From: Psammoneis japonica
Lineage: Eukaryota
Assembly (NCBI GenBank): GCA_008632985.1
Contig: QPGO01000108.1
Coordinates: 114,476-178,475, forward strand
Direction: 5' to 3'
DNA length: 64,000 nucleotides
Made by a program: the position numbers and the translations under genes. The notes under the pieces are model-generated. The model ran no database searches. It saw only the letters and a program-made list of their open reading frames with translations, and had not been told where the DNA came from. Below are positions 2,451-58,058 of this stretch, piece by piece. Position 1 is the stretch's first letter, and the number at the start of each line of letters is the position of its first letter.

Positions 2451-3209
2451 TTCTCTTAGATTTGCAACCTTGCACACCATGCAGCAGCAACATTGCTGTG
2501 CTCCATGTGCCCAACAGGTGATGAAAATGCAGGTGTGTCACAAAAGTGCTGCTGTGAAAATTGTGAGCCCAGTGGGGTTGTGCAAGCAGGAAATTTTGTC
2601 AAGCTCCTGTTTGTTCAGATTTTGTGTCACATCAAAATTGTTGCTGCTGTTTTCTTTGTGGATCATGCAAATCAGGCTGTCATGCATCTTCCACAAGTGA
2701 TGTCATTGTGACAGGCTGCACTGCCATTGGGGGGCAGACACAATGTGCCAGTGCCATGCACATGGATCATGATGCTCTGGGCATTCCTCTGAAATCACCT
2801 GAGTCAAAGAAAAGCCATGTCCTCTTTAGATCATGCTTCCCAGGTGTGCCTGAGCAGTGCCACATTGCTGCGCACCAGAGGCCAGTGCACAGCCTCACCC
2901 TGCTGGCCAGCGGGTGCATGCTGCACCACAGACATCAGGTTTGTCAGCATGTCTCAGCAGGGGAGCTCCCGTGCACTGTTTGTGCCCATGAAGCATGGCT
3001 TGGGCCATCTTCCTCACTGTCAGGTGTGCCACACTTCTCTGTGGAAGGTGCTGCTGCTTCCTCATGCTGAAGCCTCGTCATGCTGGTTTTGAGTGTTGCC
3101 CCACTCCTGGGGGCTCAAGTGTTTCTAGAAGCTCCATTGTTAAAGAATTGAAACCAAAAACTGAAGAGTTTCTTGTTTCTTCAACTCACGTGCACTGATT
3201 GGCTCTTGC

Positions 3210-4445
3210 TTGAAGAAAAAATGGATTGAAGCAAAGGAACACCTTCAAATGCACCCACAAGCAATGAATGAGATCACAACTTTGTTTGATGGTGCATCTG
3301 TTCTTCACATTCTTGCCTGTCAATTCAAACATGTCATTAAATTGAAACAAGATGATGTCTGTGATGATCATGAAGATGAAACGGAAGAAGGGGCCATGAT
3401 TTCCCGCAAAACATGTGACTTTGTGCAGTCATCATTTGACACAGCTTTCAATGGCGATGATTTAGATTCTTCTGTGAAACAGGCACTTGCATGATCAATG
3501 TTGTTTTGCCATGACACAAATGGAAATGTGCCACTGCAGAACCATGTTTGCTGCAACATGACTGCAGCAAATCCAGCACTTGTAAAGATTCTTCTTGATT
3601 TGGCTCAAATGATCTCTCCAACAACTCTGTGCAAATTGGTCACTGCCAAAAGTGACTCAGGTGTGACAGTGTTGCATTTTGTGGCCGCGGGGAGGTGCCA
3701 GCACCAGATTTTGGAGCTTCCAATGGCTTGTTGCAGTGATGCCCCATCAGAGGATCCTGCTTTGATTCCAGATGAAGATGGCAAATCTATTCTGCACAGG
3801 GTGAGTGTTGTTGTTCAATCCCCAAGGCATTGGAAGCTGCTGTTGGGACATGGTGCTGAAGGACTTGTGCATCAACATGATGGGTGTTTGTTTCCAATTG
3901 ATGTGATGTTTCAAGAGGCTGATGATTTTGAGAGACCACAAGAGTCCATCTGTGAAATCATTGATCTCATGTTGCATGCTCACTTTGGAAAACTCGAAGC
4001 AGCATCAGAAGACTGGTTTCCACTTCATGCTTTGGCACAAGCACTCTTTTGTCGTCTGCACATGTTGGAGGTTCTCCTTGAAATGTCTGACCAGAGCAAT
4101 CAGCTTTTGACCTTCAATCATCAAGGCATGTTGCCAATTCATGCAGCAGAAGCAGCACAGCCCATGCCAAAGTTGCTGCTGAGAGTCAACCAAACTCCAC
4201 TTGACCAGCTTGAAATCATCCGATCGAGTCAATCTTGTCATTGTTTGGAAAAGATCCCCAGTGAAAAAATTGTCAACCCAATGATGCCAAAGATTCTTCT
4301 CAAAACATCTGGCAGGAGCAACCAGCTCTTGACCTGCAACCATCAAGGCATGTTGCCACTTGTTTTTTTCCACTGAGAGTCAACTGAGCTCCACTTGGAC
4401 AGCTTGAGCTTTGCCCAATCAAGTCAATCTTGTCATTGTTTGGAG
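3210..4445 (+). pseudogene. Hypermutated ankyrin-repeat-like gene remnant with an internal duplication
   Basis: Motifs DTNGNVPL, SDSGVTVLHFVA, DEDGKSILH, FNHQGMLPIHAA; the segment at about 4075-4250 is repeated at about 4295-4445; in-frame stop at 3492; TA/CG depleted. Confidence 0.55.
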
Positions 4446-5639
4446 TGGAGACAGCAGAAAGAGGCAAACACAATTTGATTCTTTTGGTGCAAGAGCTCAT
4501 CCTGCTCAGGCTTTGGCTCATCCAGCAATGGCTGGTCATTGTCTTGCACTTCACCATGCCATTGTGAATTGGGTTGCAGTGTGCATTGTCAAGCAGAAGA
4601 AATTGTGCACATTCACAGGCCGGTTGCTTGTCAATCGTGCAACAATCCTCGTGGATGCATGTGAAGGTCAGATCAATCACACAGAATTGTTTGGAAGTCT
4701 AAAATTGCAGGTGCAATTGACAGATGATGTTGTCACACACAAGATGTCAATCATGTTGACTTCATCCGGACAATCTGTTGTCATGACCAGATTCTCCGAC
4801 AGGCCTTTGCTCTGTGGGAGCAGCAGCACAAATGCATCATCAGGCCATTGAGAGCTTGTTTGGAGAAACCCAAAATGGCAGAGTGAAATCCATTCTCTCA
4901 ATTTCCACTTTTCATGATTTGTTCTGCTTTCATTTGCACTCATTCTTCGAGCACAGTGCAGGGTCACGTGTGGGAAGAGCAGCAAGACAACTGCAGAAGG
5001 CTGTGCTGGGTTCAGCTGCTGCTCTTGATCCCCAAAAAGACAAGATTGTCTCCATTCTTGCTGGCTGTGTCAGCTCCCAACCCCCCCAGGCTTTGACAGG
5101 ATGTCCAATGGCAGGCTGGATGCAACACTCGAGTTGGCCTGCATTTGTCCGGAGTTGCTTCGACCTCCCTGGAGCACCCAAGCATTTTTCTCCCTGGTGA
5201 GCCAGCTGACTCAGTGACTGAGAAGGCTGCAGATGAATGTCATGTGTGTAGAGAAAACATGTAAACCCAAAATGTTGTCACATGCATTTTGGGCACTGCT
5301 GTGGAGAGATTGCAGCAAGCAAATTTCAAATTTGACCTGCACACATTGCAGATCGGCCGAGCACAAGCGCCCAATCATCAGCAGAGTCGTGGAAGTCATT
5401 CGTGTTGTTCTCCGGGCTGTAATGATTTGTGACCCTTTATTTAACAGAATGACCTGAATGATGACTTGGCTGTCGTTGCGGGTCACAACATCGCGATTCT
5501 GAATTTCTGCGGGCGTTGATCGCGAGACCAAGACAGAGAGGAATAGACGCACATTGAACGCAACACGACACTCTGCCCCAACCTCTCGCCATTCTATACT
5601 TTCTATTGACGTTTGTCTTGAGGAAGAAGAACCGCCACG

Positions 5640-10398: not shown

Positions 10399-11168
10399 TC
10401 AGAAAGCGCCTGTACAGCTTCTTTGTTTCTAGTTGGAACACTGTGTCCACCGGGGTGCTTTACAGTGGAGACGTCGAAACCGGCCTTTTGCAACGCGGAT
10501 AGAACCTGTTTGGCACTAGAGGGCGGATTGATATTGTCAGCCTCGCCCATTACAAACGCGACTCGGGTAGGACAAGGTGTGGACAGTGTCAAAAGTTGCT
10601 TTGTGTAGGGGTTCGGCCATGCAACGCCGTTCAGAATGTAACCAAGCTCTGGGTGGTTCGAGATCCGATTCAACGCCAACAAGGCAGAAATCAAAATTGC
10701 TCCTTGGGAGTGAGCAAGAACAACATGTGGTTCTTCCTCTTGGAGAGCCTTCATCACCATGTTCTCACTAGTTTCAAACCCGATATACTTGTCAGCGTTA
10801 AACGAGCGTTCTCCCGGGTTCATTGTCCACCACGCATATCCCGATCCTTTGGAGTATGGTGCTGTAAGTGATGTAATTTTCACCTCAATCCCATGTTGCT
10901 GATGAATGCTAACTTGCAAGGGAGCTAATCTTTCTGTAAACTCTGGACCACTTCCTTCGCTCCCATGCAGCGCCAACAGCTTCAATGTCCTAGTAGTCGA
11001 GCCACTACTAGCGGCAGACGATTGATGGTTTGCCATGTTGCATGCGGTGAGAGAAACGAATGAGGCTCGATGCTGCTGACTTCCAAGAAACTGCCACGAG
11101 AACCCAGCTGCTGTCCTGTTCAACACAAGCGCAAGTACCATCAACAAGCAGAGACCACAAGCGCTCAT
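10383..11168 (-). CDS. Serine hydrolase, FSH1/OVCA2 family, with signal peptide
   Basis: LALHGSEG, YAWW, nucleophile motif AHSQGA, GEADNI (Asp) and HPGGHSVP (His); hydrophobic leader ending in AAG-F. Confidence 0.9.
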   Translation of the reverse strand: MSACGLCLLMVLALVLNRTAAGFSWQFLGSQQHRASFVSLTACNMANHQSSAASSGSTTRTLKLLALHGSEGSGPEFTERLAPLQVSIHQQHGIEVKITSLTAPYSKGSGYAWWTMNPGERSFNADKYIGFETSENMVMKALQEEEPHVVLAHSQGAILISALLALNRISNHPELGYILNGVAWPNPYTKQLLTLSTPCPTRVAFVMGEADNINPPSSAKQVLSALQKAGFDVSTVKHPGGHSVPTRNKEAVQALSEWIAQ

Positions 11169-11364
11169 TGCGTCGGCCAACGACAGTGGTGTCCACACAA
11201 ACAGTGAGTGGCAGACGATGCGCCATTGCGACGTGTGGCGTTCGTCGCGCGCGCGCGCGTCGCGTCGTTGTGGGCTGGGACAGGCGCCCAAACGTGAAAA
11301 AATTTTATGATGCTGTAGATGAAACAAGCACCCCCCTGGCCCTCTGTGCGGTGGCTAGCCCTGG

Positions 11365-11900
11365 TAGACCAGGAAAGATTGGTCCACTGCACTGCCCAAC
11401 CTTTGCAGCGACACCTCTGCTGTTCATCAGGAGCTGACAAATGACGCAAGTGGCTGTCCAGCAGTTCCTCTCGGCCAGCCAACGTCTGTCACCAGCTGCT
11501 GGCAAGGCATGCAAAAAGAGACGAGGGGTGCAGCCAGGAGAGGAGCTTGACAAAGTCTGGCCATGCATGCTGAGGGCCAACTCAGGGAAACCATTTGGAG
11601 GTGCAAACATGGTGTTTGCAGGTGATCTCAGACAACCAGAGCTGGTTGGGCATGGAGTGCATCAAAACAGCGCACAAAGAGAGGCGTGCACCTGAGTCCT
11701 TCCAAGAGGAGCGGGGGGCAAGTTGCCACGTGCACGACATCAAAAGAACATGCTCACACAGATTCAAGGCTGACACAGTGCAGGGTCAAGAACCTCCAGA
11801 ACACTTTGGAGATGCAAAGTGAGTCTTGAGGACACTGATTCAATTGACGAAAGAGTTGTCAAATGTGCTCACAGCAGCTTGCTCCAGATGCTGAAAACAA
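11365..11900 (+). mobile_element. PIF1-like (possibly Helitron-type) helicase remnant, copy 1
   Basis: GKPFGGANMVFAGDLRQ resembles PFGG.x.VF.GDF.QL, followed by HRFK.D; degenerate; duplicated at about 19195-19640. Confidence 0.6.
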
Positions 11901-14900
11901 TCCACCACAAAGCTGGTGAGCTCAATTGAACTTGTTGCAGTTGCACCACACACAATTGCGCACTTGCCTCCCTTCCCATTGGGCTTTGGCATGCTCTGCC
12001 TTGTCATGTGCATTGACTCATGGTCTGGTTTGTTTCTCATTGATGTCTCTCAAGAAGTGAGAAAGTGAGTGTTTTTGCCACAGTGATGCACTGCCCTTCA
12101 TTGTGCCGTGCTCTGTGCATTTGCACATTTGAGCCTGTCCACCTTGTGCCACATCCAACAGTCAGGTGCATCCCACCCATCATTTTAAAAACTTGGCATG
12201 CCCTGTGATTGGTCCAAATTTTTTGCAGACTGCGCTTGCTTGTCAATTCAAACACTGTGTCTGTCATCTGCACCAGCATGCAAATCTGCCTTTCTGCCAT
12301 GCATCATGCTTCCATGTCCTGATGATGCCTTTTCTCTGTGTGAGATCCATCTGTGCTTCATCCCAGCAACGCTTTGACAACTTTCCCAATTGACTCCATT
12401 GGCCTCCAGACTGTGGCAGCCCCTGCAACGCCAGGGCCTTGTCTGGCTGGGCATTTGGGTTTGCGATGCAAGCTCCCAACTTGTTCCAGTTGTCCTTGTT
12501 TGGAGATGCCATCCTTTGAGTGCCAAAACCTGACCGCCTTGCCCAGGTCAGCCATCATGTGTCATCCCAGCCACAAAAATTCTGCAACACATGCCTGGAG
12601 TGCTGCCTTCTGTGATCCAACCAGCAGCTTTCTTCATTTGGTTGTCCACCTCCTTCAACACCCTTTTCTGGTTGGAATCTGCACACTGCATTCATTGGTT
12701 GTAAATTCTGGTGGTGCTCTCTGCAACACTCTTGCCCACATTTCCTCCACAATGTCTCTCTCTGACTTTGGGTTGTCCACTGTCAATTCATGCCATGGCA
12801 AACTCCGTCCACTGTCACTCCACCAACTCTGCCCTCATCTTCACTCCCAAGTTTGCTGCTGTTGTCTTCACTGTCAGCATTGCTCAGCCAAATTTTTGGT
12901 CCATCCACCACATTCATGCACTCATGACAAAACAGCAATTCTTCCATGTTGTCATGGATGCATTGCTCAAATGCCACACCAACATTCTCCATTCCCCTCC
13001 ATTTGCTGGGAACCAACTCAGGAACATGGGCGTGGGCAATGGGCAATCCAAGACAGGGACCGGGCACAGAAGATGGGGCAGACTGGGACCAACAAATGCT
13101 CGTTGGTTGCTGAGGCTTTCTGGGAGTGAAGCGGAAGTGCAAGAATTGGATGAATGTGACATGGACAACATTGTGTGAGCAGGAGGCAAAACTTGACTCA
13201 GGACAGAAGAGATGGTGCAAGGGAGACCAGGAGTCAAAAATTGACAGGATGCATTGGATGCTGTGGTTGGAAGATGGGGCTGTTGTGCTGAAATGGAAGA
13301 AGGGGATCTGCCCCCATCAAGGCAGGTGATGCACTAGAAACAACCAGGGAAGCAACACTTGGCTGGGTCACAGAGCACAGGGTTCCACCCAGTGCACCAT
13401 TGCCAACCACATGTGAACCGGGGTTGCCAACATTGTCAGCGCAGATGAGGGGAAAGCCCAGAAAGGCATCACCCAGGCAAGTGGCATGGGCTGTGGAATG
13501 AACCCCATTGGTGCAATCAGCTGCACCTGCGCCAAAAGTGAGGACCATGGGATGAACCCTGGAAGCACAGTCTCCTGCTCCAATGGAGGAACCAAGTGCA
13601 TTGCCAACATTGCATTTGGGGCAGTTAGAGTCATTGCGTGCATCATCATTTGAGGGCAACTGCAATGAGGAAGCTGTGCTCCCAACCAAGGTGGGGGGCA
13701 TGGGATGGACCCTGGCAGCATCCTCAGTCAGCAGCTGTTGCACCTCCAGACAACCGCTGGCTGCACCCCCCAACAAAATGAGCGGCCATGGGAGGAACCC
13801 TGGTGGCCACGTGATTGTTGCATGCACCAAGACCTGCACCCCCACCAATGTGGGGGCCATTGGATGAACCCTGGCAGAATCATCAATGGGAACGACCACT
13901 CCAAAATGACCTCCAGGTGCACCGCTGACAAATGCAGGGGACATGGCAGTGGCCTCCACAAAGGGCATGATTGGGGGAGCAACACATTGGGGCTGACAAA
14001 TGTGCCAATTGGGGAGGAAATGTTGCAATGGACCTGTTGAGTGCACTCTGATGCTGCCTCTTGGTCAAATGAACATGAGAGGAGCCTCTGTGCACAGTTG
14101 ATTTGCTCTGTGGAAATGAGGGCCCACCCATTGTGCATCAGCAGCATTGGACAATGCTCAGCCAGCAAACAGCAGGTTGATGAACTCAAAACCAACAGGA
14201 AGCAAAATGCCAGAAAACATGGAGAAATTTGGACAACAGAAAGGAAATTTCAGAATGTGGAAACTGCTCTGAAGGACAAGAACAAACAGGGACAGAGGTG
14301 CATCAACAGCACATTGTTGCACTTCAAATGTTGGCTGCCAAGGGCTGAGAAGAGAGAAGGTGGCTGTTGCAACAATGAAAAATTGCAGAAAAAGAGACAA
14401 CAGAAAATTAAAATTTTGTGGCATGTGCAGTTTGCAAGACACACACAAGTTGAAATTTTTGATGCTGTCACAGGAGGCCAGAGCAGCACATGAAATGAAG
14501 ACAAGATGAGGGTGCAACAACACTTGCTGTCAGTGAAAAAGAGTCTGCATGCATGAGTTGGGAGGCCAAATGCAGAAATGGAAACAACGGGGTGGTGTGG
14601 GACTGTTCACAGAGGAAAAGTCAAGTTGAAATCGGGACATCTGCACCTGACACTGCAGCTCCTCCTGCAGTGTCATCACAGGTCCCACAGGAGGCACAAA
14701 GGGTGCCATCACAACAATGGAGATTGGCCAAATTGCACTGAGGTTGGCATTCATTAAATGCAGGAAATCCACCAGAGCCATGCAGGACTTGCACTGCCCC
14801 CCCTCTGATGCCTTTTTCCAGACTGACTTGTGGGGTTCAGGTTGTGCATCAAAAAACAACTTTGGCTCAGGCGCTTGTTTCCAAACAACAAATTGTTTTG

Positions 14901-14959
14901 CTTTGGCAGATGCTGGCAACTCTGGCATCATTGTGACTGAAAAATGAAGTGCATGGCAT

Positions 14960-15245
14960 TGTCAACTGTCTCTTGTTTTTGCTTGTGTTCAGCTTGTGAC
15001 CACTTCACTCGTGTCGCTCAATTTTGTGAGGTGCTGCATTTCACAGCACTTCCGCTGAATCTCGAAAACAGAATGATTGATGAAAAAAAGCAATGACAGC
15101 ACATTGAACATTGTTGGTTGTCTCTTGTTTTTGCTTGTGTTCGGCTTGTGACTGCTTTTGCTTGTGTCGCTCGATTTTGTGAGGTGCCACGTTTCACAGC
15201 GCTTCCACCGAATCTCCATCCAAAACACAAAATGAATGATGAAAG
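14960..15245. repeat. Tandem duplication, period about 152 bp
   Basis: TGTCTCTTGTTTTTGCTTGTGTTC begins at 14967 and again at 15119; the copies differ mainly at CA/TG/CG dinucleotides. Confidence 0.9.
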
Positions 15246-15501
15246 GCAGTGGAGTGAACCAATGAATGTAAAAGGATGTCCAGCCTTTTTTATGATGTAA
15301 TTTCGAAAAAGAAGGTCAGATTTTGCGTTGGCGGGATTGGTCGGGATTGAGGATTGAGGAGAAACAAACAAGAAGCAAGCATTGGACAAGATCAAGCATG
15401 AATCGCATCATCAAGTCACATCTCATTGACGAGAAACCCTTGTGGATTATCAAGTCAAAGAGGAAAAAGGGAAAACAAAAATGCTGCAAGGACCGTCAAG
15501 A

Positions 15502-17497
15502 ATGATGATTCTTGGGACAAACAAGCGATTTGTTGCTGCGGTGCTTTCGGCATTCGTTGCCATCACATCTGCACGAGCAGAGAAAGCTGCAAAGCCCAAT
15601 TTTGTCGTCATTGTGACGGATGATCAGGGTGTTGATGACTGCGGTTTCCGACAGCCGCCTCTAGAAACACCGAACATGGACAAAATGATGAAGGAAGGCG
15701 TTCAGTTTACCAGATTTTACACAGGATCCTCTGCGGCAAGCTCCATCTTTGTCAAAGTTAGCACAACCACCCAATCGGTGATGCTAGTTTCCATCGCATG
15801 CCGGTGCACTGCTGATGTTGCTCATCTTTGCCCCTGATTTGTTGTCTCTCTCAGCACCAACTCGATCTCAACCAATGACAGGAAGGAACTTTTTTCGCAC
15901 TGGGACAGCTTCAGTGGGATTTGGTGGAGATGCACCACACCTTGATGAGTGCTTGGTGGGTCAAGCCCTGCAAGATGCCGGCTGCGTCACTGGTGTGGTT
16001 GGAAAATGGAATCTCGGCACTTCAGATGCTGAGCTGCCGCATCGCCGAGGTTTCAGCGAGACGTGGGAAGTCACAGGCTTAGAAGTCCGCACCAACGGCA
16101 AATGCGATCATTTCAATGCCCCGTTTGCTCACAACGGAGAACACCAGGGCATTCTTGAGGGCTGGCAGGTGGAGCGTGTTACGGAGAAAGCGCTGGACTT
16201 CATCCAGGAAAACAAGGACGACCCCTTCTTCCTCTACATTCCTTGCTCCCAACCACATGAACCTTGGCCATGCCCGAAGGAATTGCAACAGAAGCACATG
16301 GACAAAGGCATCAGTGAATCACATGCCATGTTCCTTGGGATGATGGAGCAAATTGACACTCAGGTGGGACGCGTTCTCAACACAGTGGAGACACATGGCC
16401 TCTCTGATGACACGATTGTGATGTTTTTCGGCGACAATGGTCCCACTCCAAAGACTGGGCTTCTCCAGCAGAAGAAAAAGGACGGAAAGTTCTTTCTGAC
16501 AGGTGGGCGGTACGAAATGATCAAGGAGGAGTGGGATGCCCGAAACCCGACGGGTTTGAGATCCAAGAAGGCTGCCGGATGGGAAAATGCTGTGCGAAAC
16601 CGTCTCGGAGTCTGCTGCCCGGCGAGATTCAACGCCAAAGTGGTCAAAGATGAGATGACCGTTGTTCACGACATTTGTCCCACGCTGCTAAACTTGGCAG
16701 GGCACTTCGATGCCCACACGTCACGAGAAGATTGTTTGCCTTTTGATGGGAGAAGCTTTGGGAGCTTGCTTGTTGACGACGATGCTGAGTGGCCGAAAGA
16801 ACGTGGACACCTCATGGGACAACCCGGAACGCCGCACGCTGAGGAAAGCAAAGATGGATGGCACTGTCGTTTCACGAAGAAGCGCTCTCTGCCTGTTGAC
16901 AGCCGGAGCACAGCATTTCTTTTGGGTTGCTGGGTTGTCGTCAATGACGAAGGGGTTTGGGGGCTGTTCGATCTTTCCAAGGACCCCAAACAATTGGTGG
17001 ATCTCAAGGAGACCCGGCCTCGAAAATTCCGGATCATGCGGAAAGCCCATTTTGCAGCGTTGTCAAGAATTCGTGAAGACCCGCATGCATGGTCTGATCC
17101 GGTCCAGGTCGTTGGCTTTCCCGACATTGAGAAACCACATCTGGAAATGTACTGCGCCTTCCGATACAAAGGGGTCAACAAAGTGTCTTGGTTCTGCACT
17201 TTCTTCCGTGAGCTCGGAGCCGTCCAGGAATCGAAAATCAGGGCACTCAAGTCCGCCAAGTACAACGTCGAGCTTCGCGCACTGGGCGTGCCACCAGGAA
17301 CAAAAATTGAGTTTCGTGTCGGTCGCCGGACACGGACAGTATCTCTCAACGAGGGTGAAAAGATGCACAAGCTAGGGCGATTCAAGTTCAAGAAAGGAGA
17401 GGATGCCATCGGAATGACAGTACTCGAATCTGACGACTTGGACCTCCTTCGACGTATGAAAGTTTACAGTTTGCTACTTACGAAAGTGAGCGATTGA
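15502..17497 (+). pseudogene. Arylsulfatase-family gene, probably being inactivated
   Basis: Signal peptide, KPNFVVIVTDDQG, TPNMD, (C)APTR..MTGR, GKWNLG, PFFLY..PH, DTIVMFFGDNG. The putative intron 15736-15854 has a GC donor and needs one extra base near 15729 to give the catalytic CAPTR. Many expected Tyr residues read Cys or His. Confidence 0.85.
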
Positions 17498-17814
17498 CGG
17501 AGACATCGTCCTCTATCGAAACCGAGGTCTAGATGTTCCCAACATTTTTGATTTTCTCCGCGACTGTAGCTAGAGAACAAAATCTTATTCAGTATGTTTC
17601 AATAGACTTACTAGAGAGATAGATTATGATATATTTGGCTACTGTTTATCGGATGCAGTCTTTAGCAGCAGGACAAAAGCTAGTATGCCCGTGCCCGCCA
17701 CAACGCTCATCCACTTCTCGTCTTGCTTTTTGCGGGCTTTTTTCATCTCTTCGATCGGCGATCGCTTTTGGTTCTGTTGCTGTTTTGGCTTTTCCTGACT
17801 ACCCAACTCCAAGG

Positions 17815-18450
17815 TTACCGCCCATCCTCCATGTGTTCCACGTTTGAAAAAAGACGCTTTGATGCCCGGCGTGATAAGTTGGTGATGGTGCCATAGGGCC
17901 CTACATGCTTCAACGACCGTGACAAGGTCTGCGTGGCATTCTCTTGGTCATCATTGGTAGACAGTAACTCAAAAAAGGCATTCCGACAGTTCTCCTGGAC
18001 ATCGTGGGCCTTCCAATCTTCTTCAGCTTGATCCTTCATAACAACGTACTCGTTAAAGATTCGTTCAAAGTAGGATATCAGCCGAGGATAATCTTGGAGA
18101 ATCGAAATCAAATGAATGTTTCCGAGTGCATCCGCCAAGTGCAACCACAGCATGGCATCCACAATGGTTGGTTTGGATGACGATACGAGAAAGTCTTTGG
18201 ACAGGCATTTTCAAGACGCTGTAGCATTCCCGAGCGATTTCTATTGCTTGATTGACGTAAAGTGCGTTGGAGCGTCGCCGTGCCAGAGTGGCTTCAGTCC
18301 TGGCTTGTAGGGGGGCCAAAAACCAACAGGAACCAAAATCACCGCGGCTGGCTTGCAAACAGTGGGGACGATAGACTTGACGCCACGTGTGGTCATCCCG
18401 AAAGTGGAGAGTATCCAGAACGACGCTTAATTTCGTGACAATCAAATTCT
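17815..18450 (-). pseudogene. Metaxin/GST-C-like gene fragment, frameshifted and 5'-truncated
   Basis: TKL..VLDTLHF.D..W.QVYRP, then AIEIARECYSVL, then in a different frame KPTIVDAMLWLHLA..LQDYPRLISYFERI, which resembles metaxin C-terminal motifs. Confidence 0.55.
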
Positions 18451-18453
18451 GGA

Positions 18454-18998
18454 CATGCAACGCCGTTCAGAATGTAACCAAGTTCTGTTCGAGATCCGAT
18501 TCAACGCCAGCAAGGCAGAAATCAAAATTGCTCCTTGGGAATGAGCAAGAACAACATGTGGTTCTTCCTCTTGGAGAGCCTTCATCACCATGTTCTCACT
18601 AGTTTCAAACCCGATATACTTGTCAGCGTTAAACGAGCGTTCTCCCGGGTTCATTGTCCACCACGCATATCCCGATCCTTTGGAGTATGGTGCTGTAAGT
18701 GATGTAATTTTCAGCTCAATCCCATGTTGCTGGTAAAGGCTCTTTTTCAAGGGAACTAATCTTTCTGTAAACTCTCGACCGTTTCCTTCGCTCCCGTGCA
18801 ACGCCAACAGCTTCAATGTCCTGGTACTCGAGCCACTACAAGCGTCAGACGATTGTTGGTTTGCCATGTTGCATGCGGTGAGAGAAACGAATGAGACTCG
18901 ATGCTGCTGACTTCCAAGAAACTGCCACGAGAACCCAGCTACTGTCCTATTCAACACAAGCGCAAGTACCATCAACAAGCAGAGACCACAAGTGCTCA
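18454..18998 (-). pseudogene. Truncated duplicate of the FSH1 serine hydrolase
   Basis: Nearly identical to 10618-11168, but has a 5-nt deletion near 18486, and homology ends at about 18454, removing the catalytic Asp and His. Confidence 0.9.
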
Positions 18999-19194
18999 TT
19001 GCGCCGGCCAACGACAGTGGTGTCCCACACAACCATAGTGGCAGACGATACTTCGTCTACTCAAGCTTGCCTTGTTGGCTCGTGTTAGTGAGTTAGTGCG
19101 TGAGTGCGGTGTGCGCAGTCGTGGCGTCTGTCCACCGACCCGAATTCTCTATTGTGTCTGTACTTCGACTTGCGCCATCCGACGTGGCGTTCTT

Positions 19195-19800
19195 GAGACC
19201 AGGAACGATTGGTCCACTGTCCAACCTTTGCAGCGACACCTCTGCTGTTCATCACGAGCTGACAAATGACACAAGTGGCTGTCCAGCAGTTCCTCTCAGA
19301 GCCAATGTCTGTCAGCCATTGACAAGAAGATGCAAAAAGAGAAAGGTGCAGCCAGAGGAGCTTGACGAAGTCTGGCCGTGCACTCTGAGGGCCAACTCAG
19401 GGAAACCATTTGGAGGTGCAAACATGGTGTTTGCAGGTGATCTCAGATGACCAGAGCTGGTTGGGCATGGAATGCATCACCAACACACAAAGAGAAGCGT
19501 GCACTGAGTCCTTCCAAGAGGAGCGGGCAGGGTCAACCTCCAGAACACTTTGCAGATGGCAAAGTGAGTCTTGAGGACACTGACTCAATTGATGAAAGAG
19601 TCATTGTCAAATGCACTCACAGCAGCTTGCTCCAGATGCTGAACATGCCAAGGTGCCCTGCTCATGGAAACCAAGACAGTGATTCTGTCAATGCTGCTCT
19701 CCTGTTTGAAAGGGCGACAAGTTGTGCGAAGGACATGAAAAAGTGGTTGGCTCTGCAGGTGCACTCAGCAACAACTTGCACAAGTCTGGGCAGCACAGAC
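19195..19800 (+). mobile_element. PIF1-like helicase remnant, copy 2
   Basis: GKPFGGANMVFAGDLR* and N.D.DSVNAALLFE; aligns to 11365-11900. Confidence 0.6.
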
Positions 19801-19819
19801 CTTTTTTTCAACCCGCAGG

Positions 19820-21160
19820 GTGCTCCAACCTCCTGAATGACTGGCTTGAGACATGCAAAACTAGCCTCACCCCGATGGAACGCAAGCATCTGAAACATTG
19901 TCTTGAAACCAACAAAGACCCGTTCCCCGTCTTCCACCTTGCTCTAAAGGTGCACAAGCCCCCTCCGCTCCAATCCCAACCGATCGTCTCTGCCAGCGGT
20001 GGCCTGCTCTATGGCTTGGGCATCTGGGTGGATGACAAGCTCCAGAAAGTTGCCCGCCGCCAACGATCACATTTCAAGAGCTCCCTGGACCTGAAACAAG
20101 CTCTTGTCCAAATGGAAATGCCGTCGCATTGCCTCCTCTTCACATCCGACACCGAGGCCTGCTGCTCCAACACACCTGCCAGAAAAGCACTTCGATTGAT
20201 TGCCTCCCACCTCTGACGTCATGAACATGAACATGATGACGTGCCAATGGATGCCCTCATCAAAGCCCTCCGAATTGTGATGGAAAACAATGTGTTCACC
20301 TTCGGAGACACCACTTGGCACCAGCGCAACGGAACCGCCATGGGCACACCACCCGCCCCTCCATGCGCCACCTTGTGCTGCGCACTCCATGAAGACATGC
20401 TCCTGGAGGAGTTTAGCTCCCAGCTTCTTCATCACACAAATGATTTGTCGATGACGTCTTCAGCATTTGGCACATCACTGACACTGCCACTGATGCCGCC
20501 ACCTGGGAAGCATTTGCCTCCAGACTGAATGACTTCGACATCACATGGATCACGAGCCCACAAAGCCACCAAGTTAACTTCATGGACCTGACGATCTCGC
20601 TCCAAGGCCCCCACATCCACACCACCCTCTACGAAAAAGAAATGAATCTGTGCATGTGCATCCCACCTCACTCAGCTCACCCGCCTGGAGCACTCACCGG
20701 CCTCATTGTGGGTGTGCTCCACCACTTTAAAAACCTGTGCTCCAACACCGCCGACGCAAAAGCAAAAGTGAGCCTGATCCACCTTTGACTGCAAGCCCAG
20801 GGTTGCAAACCCAGCAAACTACAACCGCTCTTCCGAAAAGCACATGACCTCATCTTTGGCAATGCTGACAGAACAACAGAAGAGCCCCAGTCAAACCCAA
20901 TCTTCCTGCACCTTCCTTGCCACCCAAACAACCCACCATCCAGTGAACTGCAGAAATTGTGGAAAGGTGCAATGGCCAACCCTCCCCACTCAGAACCTCT
21001 CTCAAACCTCCAAAATCATGCCTGACAACGCATCAGCCTCAACTGCATGGTTGTTTGTTGCAGTCGCTCCTGCAATCTTAGAAATCTCCTTTCCTGCCGC
21101 ACACTCCGAGCCTCCCATGGCCCCCCAGTTTCGTCCCATCGGATTGCAAACATGGAGGCC

Positions 21161-21163
<3 letters not shown>
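19820..21163 (+). mobile_element. Penelope-like retroelement, 5'-truncated RT copy
   Basis: LKVHKPP, RNGTAMGTPPAPP(Y)AT, FVDD, NFMDLTI, TTLYEK, IPPHSAHPPG, FLHLP(Y)HP and terminal C(Y)SR..NL.NLLS; ends in (GA)n; no GIY-YIG seen. Confidence 0.85.
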
Positions 21164-21197
<34 letters not shown>

Positions 21198-21282
21198 AAC
21201 TTGACTTGAATTGAGTCGATTTAATCAACCCATCTGTCCTTCTTCGGATCTTTTTAACGCAACAATGCCCACCGCACGTTGA

Positions 21283-21352
21283 CAACAACAGCCGGCCGCT
21301 GATGAAGCCACTGCAAAAGTCTCACTCTCCTGATTTTGGCCAACATTGTTGT
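21283..21352 (+). ncRNA. Type I hammerhead ribozyme motif (degenerate)
   Basis: GGCCG-CTGATGA at 21299; CGAAA has decayed to CAAAA; stems I and III are recognisable. Confidence 0.6.
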
Positions 21353-21960
21353 GCCTGCCATTGCTGAAATAGTTGGACAAATGTCCGATTGAGCAGCTCT
21401 GCCTCAGCTGCTTGTGTTGTCATTGTTTGTCACATTTGACGGAAAATTGGCTTCACCAATTTTGATCATTCATTCGAGAGAGAGAGAGATGGGTTTTCAG
21501 CCAAAAGGAGAACAGATCCAGTTTTGCACAAGGGTGTGCAGGGTGTGGAGTTGTGGTGCCTCACAGCATTGACATGCTTGTGGTGGTGAAAGTGGAGCTC
21601 ATGCAGCTGTTGTGAAAAAAGCCACATGCTGGGGCCAGGAGAAGAATGACCTTTGCCACCAGCACGCCTTTGGGCAGCACTGCTGCTTTTGCTCCTGCTG
21701 TGAATGCAACACAGAGGAGGGGGACCACACCCCCCATTGCAGACCCAATGGTCAAACCCAAGTCAACCTCATTTGTGAGACATTTGCCAAACATCCCATG
21801 GTGGGCATGACCACAGAGATGAGAGAGAGAGAGAGAGAGAGAGGAAGCATGCAAGAGAGACAGCGCGTGGTGAACTGACTTGAAAAACAATTGATCTAAT
21901 CAACTTGCCTGTCCTCCACCACCACTTGGATCTTTTTAATGCAACAACCTCAACCACATT

Positions 21961-22008
21961 AACAACAACAGCCAGCCACTGATGAAGCCATCGCGAAAGT
22001 CTCACTCC
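21961..22008 (+). ncRNA. Hammerhead motif with intact core, 3'-truncated
   Basis: CTGATGA-AGCCATCGC-GAAA-GTC at 21979-22001; the 3' strands of stems III and I are missing. Confidence 0.55.
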
Positions 22009-22095
22009 ATGCATTGGCTTGGAACGCAATGAACTGACCCACTTGCCTGTCCTCCACCACTCGGATCTTTTTAAAGCAACAACCTCAACCACATG

Positions 22096-22166
22096 AACAA
22101 CAACATCTGGCTGCTGATGAAGCCACCGTGAAAGTCTCACTCCTGACTTTGGCCAACGTTGTTGTG
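22096..22166 (+). ncRNA. Type I hammerhead ribozyme motif
   Basis: CTGATGA (22114)..GAAA-GTC-tcactcct-GAC-TT-TGGCC-aac-GTTGTTGT; both core boxes are present. Confidence 0.7.
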
Positions 22167-23062
22167 CCTGCCATTTGTCAAAACAGTTGGGCAAATGTCC
22201 GAACTGGCAGCTCTGCCTTTTTGAATGACCTGCCATTGAGCAAATTACAAAAACTCAGGAAAATGGACTGTGTCTCATCCTCCCTGCTTGCAACCACTTG
22301 CCAACCTTTGCAATCATGCTTGACAATGCATTGGCCTTGACTGCCTGATCACATGCTGCAGTTGCTCGCGCAACCTTGGCAACCTTCTTTCACATCGCAA
22401 CCTCCACATCTCCAATGGCCTCCCTGTTTTGTCCTGCCAGATTGCAAACAGGGGGGCCACCAAGAGAGAGAGAGAGAGAGAGAGACAGCACAGTGACTTG
22501 AACTCAAATTGAACCAGTTGATTCAAACCGCCTGTCCCTTGCCCCTTGGATTGTTTCAGCACAACAGCTCAGCTGCTTTTTCACAAAGCACATGGCCTCA
22601 TCTTTGGCAACACTGCAAGAGCACCAGAACCCCAAGACAACCCTCCAATCTTTCTGCATGCACCATTTCACCCAAATGATCCACCACCCAGCAAATTGCA
22701 AAAACTTTGGAAGGGAACCACAGCCCGCCCAGCCTGATCACCACCACTCTCCCAGCTCTGCAATCATGCCCACCAGCACATTGGACTTGACCGCATGATT
22801 GTCTGCTGCAGTTGATCATGCAACCTTGGCAACCTCTTGTCATGCCGCAACCTTCTCATCTCACCCCCCCCCCCCCCAGTTTCGTCCTGCCGGGTTGCAA
22901 ACAGGGAGGCCACTGATTGTTTGTTCGTTCGTTCGTTCGTTCGAGAGAGAGAGAGAGAGACAGTGTGTGGTGAACTGATTTGAACAAACAATCAATGCAG
23001 TCAACTCGCCCATCCCCCCCCACCACTCGGATCTTTCTAATGCAACAACCTCAACCACACAA

Positions 23063-23135
23063 ACAACAACAGCAGCCGGCCGCTGATGAAGCCACCACAA
23101 AAGTCCCACTCCTGACTTTGGCCAACGTTGTTGTG
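23063..23135 (+). ncRNA. Type I hammerhead ribozyme motif (degenerate)
   Basis: CTGATGA at 23083; GAAA box decayed; stems retained. Confidence 0.6.
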
Positions 23136-23402
23136 CCTGCTGTTTGCTGCAACAGTTGGATGAATGTCCAAACTGGTGGCTCCCACCTTGGCTGCTTGCA
23201 CTCTTGTTGGTCAAATTTGATGGAATTTTGTTTGTTCATTTGTTCATTTGTTCATTTGTTTGTTTGTTTGTTTGTTTGTTTGAGAGAGAGAGAGAGAGAG
23301 AGAGAGAGCACAGTGACTTGAATTCAAATTGAATGAGTCAATTCAAACTGCCTGTCCCTTGCCCCTTAGATTGTTTCAACACAACAGCTCACCACACATT
23401 GG

Positions 23403-23472
23403 CAACAGCAGCCGGCCGCTGATGAAGCCACTGCAAAAGTCTCACTCCTGACTTCAGCCAACACTGTTGTGC
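23403..23472 (+). ncRNA. Type I hammerhead ribozyme motif (degenerate)
   Basis: CTGATGA at 23419; GAAA box decayed. Confidence 0.6.
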
Positions 23473-23565
23473 CTGCTGTTCATCTAAATGGTTGGATGAC
23501 TGTCCAAATGGTGGCTCTGCCTTGGCTGCTTTATCTTGATGGAAAATTGGCTTTGCCAATTTGTT

Positions 23566-23600
<35 letters not shown>

Positions 23601-23716
23601 GCATGCAAGAGAGACAGCGTGTGGTGAACTGACTTGAAAAAACAATCAATCCAATCAACTCACCTGTCCTCCACCACCACTTGGATCTTTTCAATGCAAC
23701 AACCTCAACCACGTTA

Positions 23717-23786
23717 ACAACAACAGCCAGCCGCTGATGAGGCCACTGCAAAAGTCTCACTCCTGACTTTGGCCAATGTTGTTGTG
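23717..23786 (+). ncRNA. Type I hammerhead ribozyme motif (degenerate), immediately 5' of the long PLE
   Basis: CTGATGA at 23734; GAAA box decayed; stems retained. Confidence 0.6.
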
Positions 23787-23922
23787 CCTGCCATTTGTTG
23801 AAATGGTTGGACAAATGTCCGAATTGGCAGCTCTGCCTTGGCTGCTGTTGTCATCTGTTTGTCACATTTGATGGAGAATCAGCTGTGCCAATTCTGTTTG
23901 TTTGTAAAAGAGAGAGAGAGAG

Positions 23923-26900
23923 TTGAAAGACAACAATGGACACTGTGACCAAGAGACCAGCATCCCCAAACGTGCACGTTTTGATTCAACTGCAGTGAGT
24001 TCTGCCCAGCAGCAGCCAAGGACACCCCTTGCCACTGCTGCCCAATGCATCAGGGACCATGTCGCATTGCTCCAACCCAAGACAGCCACCATCCTTGAGA
24101 GGCTTGTGCTGCAACACCTTCAACTGCAAGCCAGGGCCCATGACAAGGCCTTTCACATCAAAAGGATGACTCATGACAAGGAGTTTGTCCCCTGCTCAGC
24201 CAGAATCAATTTCAAACTTCAAATGTTGAAAGCAGCTGAACAGAGCCAGGAGTTTGCAGCTCTGCAGGAGGAAACAAACAACCTTGTCAAAAACACCCAA
24301 AAAAATGCCTTCAAAAAGCATGTCATCACTGCCACCAAGATTGAATGCAAAGTCCTTTGAGAAGAAATCATGGAGTTCTGCACAAAAGCCATCTGACTCT
24401 CAACAGAAAGCTTCACCATGGCAGACAGTGTCGCCAAGCCTGTTGACACTGCAGCAGTCACTCCACTTGACTGCTGCCATGTGAGTCCCTGCTCAAGTGT
24501 GTCAAAGTCCATCACAATCTAAGACTGGCCAGCATGCAAGAAGAAAATGGCACCGGGGATTCTCCATTTCCAACACAGCTGCAAGCAACAGCACAAGCAC
24601 CAACACTCACCGCAGCCCAGCAACAAGCCAAAAGCCAACTTGACAAAATCTTTCAAGCTCTGGAGCGCATCTTTTTCTCTCCTTGGGACATCTGCTTGGA
24701 AGCAAAAAAAAAACCATGACATCAGTCTCCCATTCAAAAAGATGGACAAGGAGCACTTCAAGTTGGAAGCAATGGAAAACACCAACTTGGAAATTGACGG
24801 AGAACCTGCAGTCAATCCTGCCACCCTGAAAGAACTCGTTTGCAAGGAGACAGAGAAAAATGCAAAAAAGCTGACTCAGCAGGTCAACTTGCTCTCGCAG
24901 CATGTCAAATCAATGAAACAACAGTCATCAAACAAACAGAGGAGGGGCCCAACCACCAACGCCGGCACCTCATCACAAAAAGAAAAAGGCAAAGGTGCCT
25001 CATTGGGTTGCTCAAGGAAACAAAACGCCCTCCACGCGACCGCAGAGCCAATGATGCTGACAAAGACACCGCTGGTGCCAACAAAAACAATCGCTGCCAC
25101 ACCAAATCAAAACAGCCATCAAAAAAGAAGCAGCAGTGCTCCAACACCAACTGGAACAGGAGCCAGAGACAATGTCAGCACAAATCTACCAAATGCATGG
25201 ATTTGTTGCTGATCTCTCCAAATTGCTCTCACACATCGCCTTCCTGCACCTTGGTGACATGCCTGCTTGGTGCTGCTTTGGCAGACCGTCACACCTCCTC
25301 TCCTTTCACAACTGCACATCTGTGTTCAAATCACCAAAGAACTTCAAATCACTCCTTGGTCTCAGCCTCAAGTTCATCCCTGCACCTCACTTCGCTGACA
25401 GTGGCAAGTCACTCAAGTTCCAAGACCACATGCTTGGACATTTCAAGCTGGACCTGGACAAACGCGACTGCTTTGCAAATGCACCAATCAACAACAATGA
25501 AGACTGCTGCAACCCAAGAATGCATCTCCGACCCAACTGGATGCCACCCTCTTGGAATGAAGCCAAAATTGTTGAGTGCCGCTGCGTGAATTTCAAAACA
25601 AAACTCATGCAGCTTTTTGCCAAACGCCATGGTAAAACCAACCTCCTGCCCCGCCAATGCCACGCCCTCACCCATTTGCACAAACAAGATGACTTTGTGA
25701 TTGCCCAATGTGAAAAGAACCCGGGCCCTGCCATTGTTGAAAAAACCAAACACATCAAAATGGCATGCTGCGATCACCTCAACAATGCAGCCGCGTGCCA
25801 CCATCTTAGCAACTCCAAAGCCACCGTGTGCAAATGCCGCATCAAAAAGCTTCTTGCTGACTGGCTCAGAACACACAAAGCCAATCTAACCCCAATGGAA
25901 TGTGAGCATCTCAAACATCACATTGAGACAAATGAAACCCCACCCCCTGTCTTCTGCCTCACTTTGAAGGTGCACAAGCCTCCACCACTTAAATCGCAAC
26001 CCATCGTCTGTGCAAGCGGCAGCTTGCTGCATGGCTTGGGCATCTGGGCAGACACTGAACTATAAAAAGTCATGCATGAGCAACCACCACACTTTAAAAG
26101 CTTGTTGGACCTCAAAAATGAATTGGCCCAAATGGCGGTGCCACCGGACTGCCTCCTCTTCACTTCTGATGCTGAGCCCTGCTGCTCAAACATCCCAACA
26201 AGCAAAGCACTTCAAGCAATTGCAGCCTTCCTGCAATGACATGAGAGTGAATTCCAAGATGTCCCAACAAAGGCCCTCATCAGAGCCCTCCACATTGCAA
26301 TGAAACACAACGTCTTTGCCTTTGGAGACACTGCATGGCTTCAACAAAATGGCGCTGCAATGGGCACACCACCTGACTCCTGGAGGAGTCAGGCGCCAAC
26401 CTTCTCTTCTGCAAGAGATTCGTTGACAATGCATTTGGCATTTGGAAAATCACTGAGCCTGCCACCGACACCGCATGTTGGAGAGCATTTGCACCCAAAA
26501 TGCATGACTGCGACATTGATTGGGTCACGAGCTCCAGACCACACACCACAAACTTCATGGACTTCACTGTCACACTCCAGGGCTCTCGCCTGCACACCAC
26601 CACTCTCCACAAGAAAGCAATGAATCCATGTCCACACATTCCACCACACTCAGCCCATCTGCCTGGAGTGCTTGCTGGCCCAATTGTGTGAATGCTCTTC
26701 TGCTTCAAGAACCTTTGCTCCGATCCAACCAGTGCCAAAGCAAAAATGAAACTTCTTGATCTTTGCCTGCTTGCCCGAGGCTGCAAGCCCAGCAAGCTTC
26801 AACCCATCTTTCAAAAAGCACACGACCACTTTTTTGGAAATGCGATGACTGCAGAAGCGCCCCCATCCAGCCCCCCCATCCAGCCCCCCCATCTTCCTCC

Positions 26901-27160
26901 ATGTCCCACATCACCCACATGACCCACCATTGAGTGAATTGCAGAAGGCCTGGAAAGGAACAATGGCTTCTTCCCCTTGCTCCCAACCACTTGCCAACAT
27001 TCAAAATCACAACCAACAACGCATCGGCTTGGAACACATGACAGCTTGTCCCAGCTGATCATGCAACCTTGGCAACCTCCTCTTGCATCCCATTCTTTGC
27101 ACACCTCTGCTGCCCCCCCAGCTTCATCCCACCGGATTGCAAACAGGGAGGCCACCAAGA
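23923..27160 (+). mobile_element. Penelope-like retroelement, near full length: helical N-terminal/ORF1 region plus RT, no endonuclease detected
   Basis: ORF1-like DKEFVP(R)SARINFKL; RT region LLGLSLKFIP, (D)KN(L)GPAIV, LKVHKPP, NGAAMGTPP, KRFVD, NFMDFTV, IPPHSAH; same 3' end GGATTGCAAACAGGGAGGCCAC followed by (GA)n. Confidence 0.88.
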
Positions 27161-27182
27161 GTTTTGTTCGTTCATTCATTCA

Positions 27183-27214
<32 letters not shown>

Positions 27215-28208
27215 CAAGCAGTGAAGGCCTGTTCCAGCTCCAGGTGCTCCGCGTGGGTTCGATCCCATCATTGGCCCATTTTTGGGTTCAGCGCAAATGA
27301 CTTTTTCAAAATCCGTTTTTTGCCAAATCGAAGGGCAAGCCACCGAATCGAAAAATTTGCGACATTGCAAAATTTGCGACAAATTCCGAATCCCCGCACA
27401 ATCATCGCGCGGCGAGTCGAGAAACGACCCTTGTCACCCTCCAAGATCGTCTTTGCGACGCGGCCAACATCCTCTGGTGCAATTCAAGGTGCAGGCGTTC
27501 TTTCTACTTCGATTAAGAAAAGATATGATGCACGAGAAATGACAAGAAATCCTTATTTTCAAAGGAAATTGCCTTCTCGTGACAGCAACTCATGCCGACG
27601 CATCGCAAGATTTCAACAAAAAATGACCTTTTTGGATGATTACACCGCCTTTCCTCACAAACAAAACGTCACATAGCTCGTCATAATGATGACAATCTGA
27701 TTGGTTTGTTGTTTCATGTCACTTGCAGACCTTCGGTTGTCGAAACAGCATCATTTGCTCATTTGAAGCGAAAAATGAAGCACTCAGAGACCTCGCACGT
27801 GCTTTCATCGTGAAAAAATTCAAGCCATTTGTTTTTATAAATTAATTTGCGATTCGCAAATTTTGCGTTTCAGCAGCAAGTGTACACTTTGCATGTGTTT
27901 TCGGGTGTACACTCACCTTTCGATTTTCGAAATGATCAAAAATGAAGGACTCAATTGTGCCAAATGTGATTTTCGGCTGGTGTCCCATTCTACGTGAAAA
28001 ATGCTCGTGATCACTCACTTTTTCATTTGTCGGAGCTCGTGTTTTTGGTCTTCTTCAACTCAACTGACGTCCGAACATGCCTCATTTCTGCAGACACAAT
28101 GCAGTTAATTTGATTGAGCACGCCAAAAAAATGTGTCCTCTCGACTTGCCATCCGTCTCATCCACCAGCCCTCTCGATGCACACTTTCAATCAAATTTCC
28201 AGTGCATC

Positions 28209-35518: not shown

Positions 35519-35745
35519 TCCAGAGAGGGGGGCAACGTCAGTTGCCGTGAAAGTGACGTGGATGAACAGAGGCAGCCTCTAAGGCAGTTCCAGATGCTGA
35601 AAAGTGTCAAACAGCAAGCTGCACTCCCGCTTGCATGACAAATGCACTCCAGAGAGGGGGCCAACGTCAGTTGCCGCGAAAGTGATGCGGATGAACAGAG
35701 GCAGCCTCTGAGGCAGTTCCAGATGCTGAAAAGTGCAAACAGCAA
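35507..35745. repeat. 129-bp tandem duplication
   Basis: TGACAAATGCACTCCAGAGAGGGGG at 35507 and 35636. Confidence 0.9.
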
Positions 35746-36829: not shown

Positions 36830-36872
<43 letters not shown>

Positions 36873-36956
36873 AAGTTGACTTGAATTGAGTTGATCCAAT
36901 CAACCCGTCTGTCCTTTTTCGGATCTTTTTAACGCAACAACGCCCGCCGCACGTCA

Positions 36957-57942: not shown

Positions 57943-58058
57943 TCTTTTTGCAATTCGTTCTTGGCATGCTGTAAATCATTTTGTAGGAGGTAGAATCATG
58001 TCTACATTTTCCAACCATTCTGGTGATATGATGAATTGAAGAAAGAAGCGATGCAAAA

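Follow-up and report, generated by a model that had tools for sequence, protein, structure and literature searches.

Near-complete loss of TpA in depleted domains of a Psammoneis japonica contig and its extension into one version of a sulfatase gene

How can a gene lose nearly all of its TA dinucleotides over most of its length and yet keep its CG dinucleotides? This question is raised by a sulfatase gene of the diatom Psammoneis japonica, located at positions 15481 to 17497 of a 64,000-nucleotide stretch of the forward strand of contig QPGO01000108.1 (assembly GCA_008632985.1, positions 114,476 to 178,475 of the contig), which we call the window and whose numbering is used throughout. The initial annotation of the window proposed that hypermutation leaks from an adjacent repeat into this gene as a gradient and is uncoupled from the decay of CpG. 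Here, we describe a regional, nearly saturating, TpA-specific transition process that acts on DNA, because the intron and non-genic DNA are included, and that crosses into a host gene on one of the two versions found in the same sample. We consider it probable, as a whole, that a TA-erasing process of silenced domains has been extended into the sulfatase gene on the haplotype represented in the window.

A sulfatase gene poor in TA and its second version

The gene and its altered parts are laid out as follows.

15481..15735, forward strand: exon 1, with the signal peptide and the start of PF00884 (Pfam positions 1-46), placed by tblastn with P0001 and by alignment
15736..15854, forward strand: intron, with the donor GCAAG at 15736-15740 in the window copy and the AG acceptor at 15853-15854
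15855..17497, forward strand: exon 2 including the stop, with the rest of PF00884 and a C-terminal domain common to the metagenomic homologues
15730..15731, forward strand: site of a 1-nt deletion in the window copy, which shifts the catalytic Cys codon of C-x-P-x-R out of frame
15532..17138: converted tract, with TG or CA in the window where TA is indicated by the other version (to 16104) or by the Tyr codons of homologues (to 17138)
17150..17497, forward strand: unmutated 3′ end of the gene, with a TA observed/expected ratio of 0.47 and a conserved Tyr retained at 17261

The start codon is the ATG at 15481, not at 15482, and the sulfatase domain PF00884 is detected in both exons (E = 3e-27). 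Between 15855 and 17140, there are exactly five TA (at 16080, 16180, 16235, 16511, and 16689), compared with 70.4 expected from base composition and 38.5 expected from ten open reading frames (ORFs) of the same window that serve as a control (Poisson P = 1.5e-11). The observed/expected dinucleotide ratio (o/e) of TA is 0.07 in this part of the gene, which is around 8 times below the pooled value of 0.547 (range 0.47 to 0.65) in the control ORFs, while the o/e of CG is 0.76, with 0.74 to 1.06 in the controls. The initial annotation was accurate in counting about five TA amid abundant CG, all of the peptide strings that it quoted are found in the translation, and TA and Tyr do return after about 17145, the first TA being at 17150. 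In the last 354 nt of the gene, the TA o/e is back at 0.47.

The loss is also visible in the protein. Our comparison set comprises the 27 closest relatives, which are metagenomic proteins with 47-57% identity over 99% of the length. Exon 2 contains, ahead of 17145, 17 columns with Tyr in at least 70% of the sequences, and in the window copy these are occupied by seven Cys, six His, two Tyr, one Asn, and one Arg, whereas the homologues have a single Cys and no His among the 459 cells of the same columns (Fisher P = 4e-21). All 13 Cys and His codons are TGY or CAY, one transition away from TAY, and both strands have been converted in similar numbers (7 TGY and 6 CAY). The near-invariant DDYG of the homologues in exon 1 is likewise DDCG in the window. 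More generally, the window copy deviates at 40 of the 188 columns before 17145 that are at least 90% conserved; a single TA to TG or CA change accounts for 15 of these deviations and a CG to TG or CA change for none. The Tyr content of this part of the protein is 0.5%, compared with a mean of 4.7% in the relatives. The expectation of Tyr at the Cys and His sites is thus borne out, with Tyr in the homologues at 13 of the 17 columns changed to one of these residues; for the strings IPCSQPH, KHMD, and HDICPT, it is the homologues that call for Tyr, as the comparison with the second version ends at 16104. The homologues (P0001 to P0027) are single-ORF proteins from marine metagenomes, and the next named relatives are bacterial arylsulfatases with around 30% identity; the family may have reached diatoms by horizontal transfer.

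The second version of the gene comes from contigs of three coded runs (X1, X2, and X3) of one sample and one study, which were aligned to 13000-19500; no contig of X3 aligned to this region. The differences considered are the 40 of 167 that were listed, all of them at or before 16104. Among the 21 that lie in 15525-16104, TA of the other version corresponds to TG or CA of the window in 16 cases and CG to CA in two; of the remaining three, two are A/G differences at places other than TA and the third is a transversion. Of the TA sites in this interval, 16 of 22 have been lost, against two of about 30 CG sites. These counts uphold two earlier proposals, namely that TA to TG or CA changes have damaged a host gene and that the loss of TA is uncoupled from that of CG. 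The other version has TA in Tyr codons at 15641, 15951, 15984, and 16104, and its T at 15737 gives the donor GTAAG that had been predicted to be the original one; the intron of the window copy is changed at 15737 and 15753. Across all of the aligned X2 contigs, 64 of the 78 differing places have G or C in the window against A or T in the contig (36 G>A and 28 C>T). One of the seven proposed hits does not survive this comparison: contigs of the other type cover the supposed Leu>Pro change in SQPMTGR (15872), and the site is absent among the listed differences, so both versions seem to carry Pro.

The two versions also differ in what they can encode. A contig of X1 has an additional C behind 15730, and it is because this base is missing at 15730/15731 that the catalytic Cys codon is out of frame in the window copy. 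The reading frame of its exon 1 is not continued in exon 2, a transcript spliced like the other version would meet a stop, and the C-x-P-x-R active-site motif of formylglycine-type sulfatases is not in frame. Contig 9 of X2 (2067 nt), likewise of the other type, connects 15731 with 15854 through CTGC and skips 15732-15853. Its translation, with the intron 15736-15854 spliced out, is G-S-S-C-A-P-T-R, in which the formylglycine motif is in frame. A frame-keeping intron of 52 nt (15736-15787) was considered and rejected; it yields Ser for the catalytic Cys and a 22-residue insert, and it is unused in the spliced contig. The lost Tyr residues, the GC donor, and the 1-nt deletion at the catalytic Cys codon therefore make the window copy, with the same high probability that we give to the explanation as a whole, a dead allele.

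From the depths and the flanks we infer, short of proof, that the two versions are the two haplotypes of a diploid. The depth of X1 at allele-specific places is around 27 and 29 for the two forms, and the sum matches the depth of the shared stretch. There is no listed difference between 15117 and 15525, with a contig of the other type beginning at 15385, and downstream of the tract, the two forms are around 1% divergent with small indels. These observations fit, but do not prove, a history in which the region upstream was already poor in TA on both haplotypes and the loss from 15532 on took place on the window haplotype alone. The difference between the versions shows, in any case, that the tract arose after they diverged. 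As for expression, X2 consists of 64,000 contigs (30 Mb), leaves 13000-15385 uncovered, covers the genic parts, and includes one spliced contig; its size, its genic-only cover, and the splicing suggest that it is a transcriptome. It contains the neighbouring gene in both forms at 17829-17938 and the sulfatase in its intact form only, which suggests that the window allele may be silent.

Depleted domains, the edge of the tract, and site preference

The sulfatase gene is not the only part of the window that is poor in TA. Domains were called by a two-state hidden Markov model (HMM) on TA positions and, separately, on CG positions. In normal DNA (5501-11000 and 45001-63500), the TA o/e is 0.6 and the CG o/e is 0.92-0.95; in the large depleted blocks, these values are 0.03-0.07 and 0.12-0.5, respectively, and those of TG and CA are 1.4-2.0. 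The segments and the domains discussed below are the following.

1..5419, 11010..17149, 19162..38995, 41442..45044, and 63366..64000: TA-poor segments, with sharp edges
1..5353, 11523..15009, 21298..27249, 30614..32098, 37013..39003, 41693..44834, and 63435..64000: CG-poor segments
11010..17149: TA-poor domain that holds a repeat-like block and most of the sulfatase gene, with a TA o/e of 0.03-0.16
11523..15009: CG-poor core of this domain, the "adjacent repeat" of the initial annotation, with a TA o/e of 0.03, a CG o/e of 0.14, and TG and CA at around 1.8-1.9
19162..38995: another TA-poor domain, larger than the first, with CG-poor cores at 21298-27249, 30614-32098, and 37013-39003 and with mobile-element-like ORFs

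Nearly all of the CG-poor bases of the 64-kb window (21,968 of 21,976) are located inside TA-poor segments, leaving 8 bases that are CG-poor only, and 13,663 bases are TA-poor only (11010-11522, 15010-17149, 19162-21297, 27250-30613, 32099-37012, and small margins). Apart from these 8 bases, DNA of the window that has lost CG has also lost TA, and the sulfatase tract belongs to a set of margins that are TA-poor and normal in CG. Given that every CG-poor block lies within a larger TA-poor block, TA loss is either much faster than CpG decay or wider-reaching than CpG methylation, and the data fit both. The signature of CG decay, with a CG o/e of 0.12-0.16 and an excess of TG and CA, is found in the domain cores only. 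In 11010-17149, the strands are balanced, with 645 TG and 635 CA.

The edge of the domain within the gene is abrupt. The TA o/e stays at around 0.1 over 15000-17140, and a step up follows between 17138, where the last converted Tyr codon is found, and the TA at 17150; TA becomes dense from 17421. The converted tract, of around 1.6 kb, is continuous on its left with the TA-free block, which supports the proposed spreading from the adjacent repeat. The proposed gradient with distance from the repeat is not supported, as 200-nt bins of TA, CG, TG, and CA show a plateau, with patches, followed by a step. By patch, the conversion of TA sites is 8 of 8 in 15532-15641, 0 of 3 in 15642-15729, 2 of 3 in 15730-15763, 0 of 1 in 15764-15950, and 6 of 7 in 15951-16104. 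The two versions are identical in 15642-15729 and 15764-15950, where the TA at 15662, 15708, 15718, and 15785 survive. This patchiness might reflect chromatin structure.

The contexts of the 143 TA that remain in TA-poor DNA are strongly biased: TTAA is found at 52% of its normal density, CTAA and TTAG at around 30%, and ATAT, ATAC, and GTAT at less than 2%. In an additive model in which the 3′ neighbour of each adenine of the TA pair determines how fast that adenine is lost, the rates are 2.1 for T, 1.8 for C, 0.9 for G, and 0.3 for A (r = 0.945). At the converted sites of the gene, among the listed differences, the changed A has a 3′ pyrimidine in 12 of 16 cases. Thus, the surviving sites point to T-A-pyrimidine (5′-T-A-Y-3′) as the target, but the same rates are equally readable as a 5′ purine preference for a modified T, and the preference does not settle the chemistry.

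The TA-poor domains are confined to DNA that is putatively foreign or silent, as the five segments include a remnant of RT_RNaseH_2 (400-747, reverse strand, Pfam) together with retroelement-like and mobile-element-like ORFs. For example, the retroelement-like ORF at 25061-26062 (forward strand) matches P0241 and P0242, which continue into a reverse-transcriptase-like motif, and it has Cys or His at Tyr sites of these proteins and Pro for Leu in the conserved C-D-K-N-L-G-P-A motif. P0241 and P0242 carry a PF28514 annotation, a domain that the Pfam search used here does not detect. Similarly, the ORF at 29420-30478 (forward strand) has His or Cys for Tyr at no fewer than 6 places aligned with P0244. 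Its family, with proteins of around 1100-1350 residues, has 258 relatives in a representative protein library and no Pfam domain, and its product is probably an undescribed mobile-element protein; the neighbouring ORFs are at 28068-29534 and 30886-31818. A Pfam search of 96 ORFs of at least 110 aa from the TA-poor blocks gave one real match (the RT_RNaseH_2 remnant) and three weak, chance-like ones, and that of the relatives P0241-P0245, P0252, and P0253 gave no family. As TAA and TAG stops are absent from TA-free DNA, the TA-poor segments, such as 28068-35578, contain many long overlapping ORFs on both strands, and gene finders would call too many genes in them.

Two copies of a segmental duplication bracket the sulfatase gene.

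10615..11900: copy A (families D6, D13, and D18), which includes a portion of an FSH1 hydrolase gene and the border of the TA-poor DNA
18447..19770: copy B, 94-96% identical to copy A and 7.8 kb apart from it, with the sulfatase gene between the two

Both copies retain TA sites, and their 46 clean differences are of mixed kinds and uninformative on the process. As the long ORF of copy A (10386-11354) contains the start of the TA-poor segment (11010), the FSH1 serine-hydrolase gene of this copy may also be partly hit.

Other features of the window include three tandem units of 171 nt at 28391-28808 (71-92% identity), which form a Ser/Pro/Thr/Ala-rich repeat in a 489-codon ORF of TA-poor, CG-normal DNA, and dispersed repeats bearing (GA)n at 20795-23921 and 36464-37476 in the large TA-poor domain (D1-D5, D7, D8, D11, D14, and D15; 61-99% identity). 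From 20 to 29 kb, the forward strand is strongly C-rich, with a GC skew down to -0.31. Among the genes of the window, Sec24 is 69-72% identical to Sec24 of Seminavis, Thalassiosira, Fistulifera, and Nitzschia (78% for the best match overall), and other long ORFs encode a protein with a four-fold helicase-associated domain and a Sulfotransfer_4 protein; both of these families are typical of diatoms.

Weighing the explanations

The explanation that we favour would work as follows. In large silenced domains of the diatom nucleus, derived from repeats or mobile elements, almost every TpA would be turned into TpG or CpA through A>G changes on either strand, with one hit per site. On the window haplotype, the domain would have grown by around 1.6 kb (15532-17138) past its older edge into the single-copy sulfatase gene. 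This extension would have converted around 70-90% of the TA sites of the gene, replaced 14 conserved Tyr with Cys or His, and turned the donor from GT into GC. The other version retains its TA sites, its GT donor, and its Cys codon, and it is found in spliced form. CpG>TpG/CpA decay would be a second process, slower or narrower and restricted to the cores of the TA-free domains, where it is probably due to the deamination of methylated C. With respect to the chemistry, the enzymatic deamination of adenine to inosine at 5′-T-A-Y-3′ in silent chromatin is a reasonable candidate, though we would put it somewhat short of an even chance; the alternatives are a modified thymine that mispairs with G and error-prone repair at TA.

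Several points weigh against this explanation. There is no distance gradient in the loss of TA, which is also patchy, with two patches of the tract (15642-15729 and 15764-15950) entirely spared. The 1-nt deletion is not of the TA type and could be an independent event. All of the listed differences are at or before 16104, and the tract beyond this point is deduced from homologues with only 47-57% identity. Runs X1 to X3 share their sample and their study and are possibly the data from which the assembly was made, and so they do not provide independent support; moreover, the runs are labelled "DNA?" (a guess), and X2 is a transcriptome only by inference. Contigs cannot show absence, and for this reason, the silence of the window allele goes no further than a suggestion. 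ORFs of at least 110 aa in 11523-15009 have no Pfam match and no transposon domain, so that the term "repeat" comes from composition. Finally, the baseline of the additive model consists of the TA contexts of normal, mostly coding DNA, which were assumed to be the ancestral state.

The strongest rival, which we nevertheless regard as unlikely, is that the sulfatase gene is duplicated and that the second version is a paralogue located elsewhere, in which case a homology-triggered mutation similar to fungal repeat-induced point mutation (RIP) would have acted over the shared length, and no spreading would be needed. In favour of a paralogue, the second version does exist in the same sample, the tract starts some 50 nt downstream of the ATG and stops within the gene, which a limit of homology might explain, and a segmental duplication of 1.3 kb brackets the gene. 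Nevertheless, the stretch without listed differences that precedes the tract, the haplotype-like divergence downstream of it, and the depths that sum to that of the shared stretch fit an allele better. A RIP-like process is also difficult to reconcile with the unmutated state of the other version, since RIP usually hits both copies, and with the TA sites retained by the bracketing duplicates. Furthermore, hypermutation affects a single-copy region in the chlorarachniophyte Bigelowiella natans (bioRxiv 10.64898/2026.01.13.699255).

A far less probable rival is an artefact in which a modified base at TA in silenced chromatin, such as inosine, N6-methyladenine (6mA), or 5-hydroxymethyluracil (5hmU), was miscalled as G or C. 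The RNA-like X2 contigs do show only the TA version of the sulfatase gene, and no library type is recorded for the runs. Window-type words are nevertheless found in X1 (share of 0.81) beside those of the other type, at a similar depth and in phase-consistent contigs; the transversion, the 1-nt deletion, and the downstream indels go with the same version; and whole protein-coding ORFs of mobile elements are affected over 20 kb.

We give hardly any credence to ordinary divergence or selection, that is, to a fast-evolving or relaxed paralogue whose low TA comes from codon usage or from selection against UA in mRNA. TA is indeed under-represented in all of the genes of the window, but not to the extent seen in the sulfatase gene, whose own 3′ end is at the level of the controls; the intron and the donor have also been hit, and a replacement of Tyr by Cys or His in 13 of 17 near-invariant columns does not resemble neutral or adaptive protein change. 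Equally negligible is hyperediting of RNA from A to I followed by the copying of the edited transcript back into the genome, which would agree with changes that are all A>G on one strand or the other but not with a retained and mutated intron, with strands hit about equally in both the codons and the X2 differences, or with a TA-poor domain that extends through non-genic DNA; ADARs, moreover, are not known outside animals. Editing by ADAR or APOBEC was likewise rejected, as the intron and non-genic DNA are mutated and the changes are A>G, not the C>U in TC or CC contexts produced by APOBEC.

Known systems and significance for diatoms

The closest parallel is found in B. natans, in which TpA>TpG/CpA hypermutation of integrated giant-virus and virophage DNA has been described, arising de novo in mutation-accumulation lines, and for which the preprint names an ADAT2 homologue as the candidate enzyme (Mettrop et al., bioRxiv 10.64898/2026.01.13.699255). 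As in that species, the changes in P. japonica consist almost entirely of A>G/T>C at TpA, with TpG or CpA as the product depending on the strand. In both cases, they are confined to domains of tens of kilobases of foreign, putatively silent DNA with TpA-poor, CpA- and TpG-rich clusters, and they are independent of copy number in B. natans and probably so in P. japonica. The host, however, is in our case a diatom (Stramenopiles) and not a member of the Rhizaria. Erasure is near saturation in P. japonica, with a TA o/e of 0.03-0.07, compared with a Rho of 0.45 for the region of nucleocytoplasmic large DNA virus (NCLDV) origin in B. natans. Relative to the process described in B. natans, further peculiarities of P. 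japonica are the nesting with CpG decay, the host gene reached on one version only, and the readable preference for the 3′ neighbour.

Fungal RIP is known to leak into adjacent single-copy genes in Neurospora and, as reported for effector genes, in Leptosphaeria maculans (Rouxel et al. 2011, PMC3105345). Like RIP, the process described here is a dinucleotide-specific transition hypermutation of repeat DNA that affects both strands and overruns into unique genes, which it can inactivate. Nevertheless, RIP changes C to T at CpA and creates TpA, while here A is changed to G at TpA, which is destroyed, and the affected DNA has a TA o/e of 0.03-0.11. In addition, RIP needs duplicated DNA and a premeiotic stage, whereas the flanks and depths of our second version fit an allele.

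In diatoms, transposable elements are CpG-methylated through DNMT5a (Hoguin et al. 2023, PMC9998398). With their low CG and their excess of TG and CA, the cores of the TA-poor domains resemble the CpG decay of methylated transposable elements. The loss of TA is not explained by such decay, which has barely begun in the sulfatase tract (two of the 21 listed differences). The tRNA A34 deaminases (TadA and ADAT2/ADAT3) act on the A that follows U33 (5′-U-A-3′), and the target of bacterial TadA is U-A-C-G. This target matches the T-A-Y deduced here, although the natural substrates of these enzymes are RNA and the substrate here would be DNA. DNA adenine base editors have been derived from tRNA adenosine-34 deaminases.

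We found no report of TpA hypermutation in diatoms in the literature searched, the coverage of which was limited. With somewhat less confidence than we have in the deamination chemistry itself, we tentatively propose that diatoms possess a chromatin-guided DNA adenine deaminase acting at 5′-T-A-Y-3′, possibly derived from tRNA A34 deaminases, which would constitute a RIP-like defence shared with Rhizaria, possibly old within the group of Stramenopiles, Alveolata, and Rhizaria (SAR), and whose domains would creep, haplotype by haplotype, into genes.

If the explanation is correct, diatoms, which are major marine primary producers, would be the second lineage with TpA-directed hypermutation, for which a single preprint from 2026 has been the only report to date. 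The mutated and intact versions of the sulfatase gene form a natural before-and-after pair, from which the direction, the spectrum, the T-A-Y preference, and the length of the tract can be read without an experiment, and which narrows the search for the enzyme. The loss of a host gene on one haplotype illustrates the cost of defence. The strict nesting of CpG decay within TA loss places the two processes in order and could help in dating when mobile elements were silenced. There are also practical consequences, as DNA free of TA misleads annotation by producing long false ORFs and by hiding transposons from domain searches. Strong allelic divergence and one-allele expression are known from diatoms, and if a diatom deaminase of the kind proposed exists, it would turn reversible silencing into irreversible gene death and may contribute to both of these phenomena.

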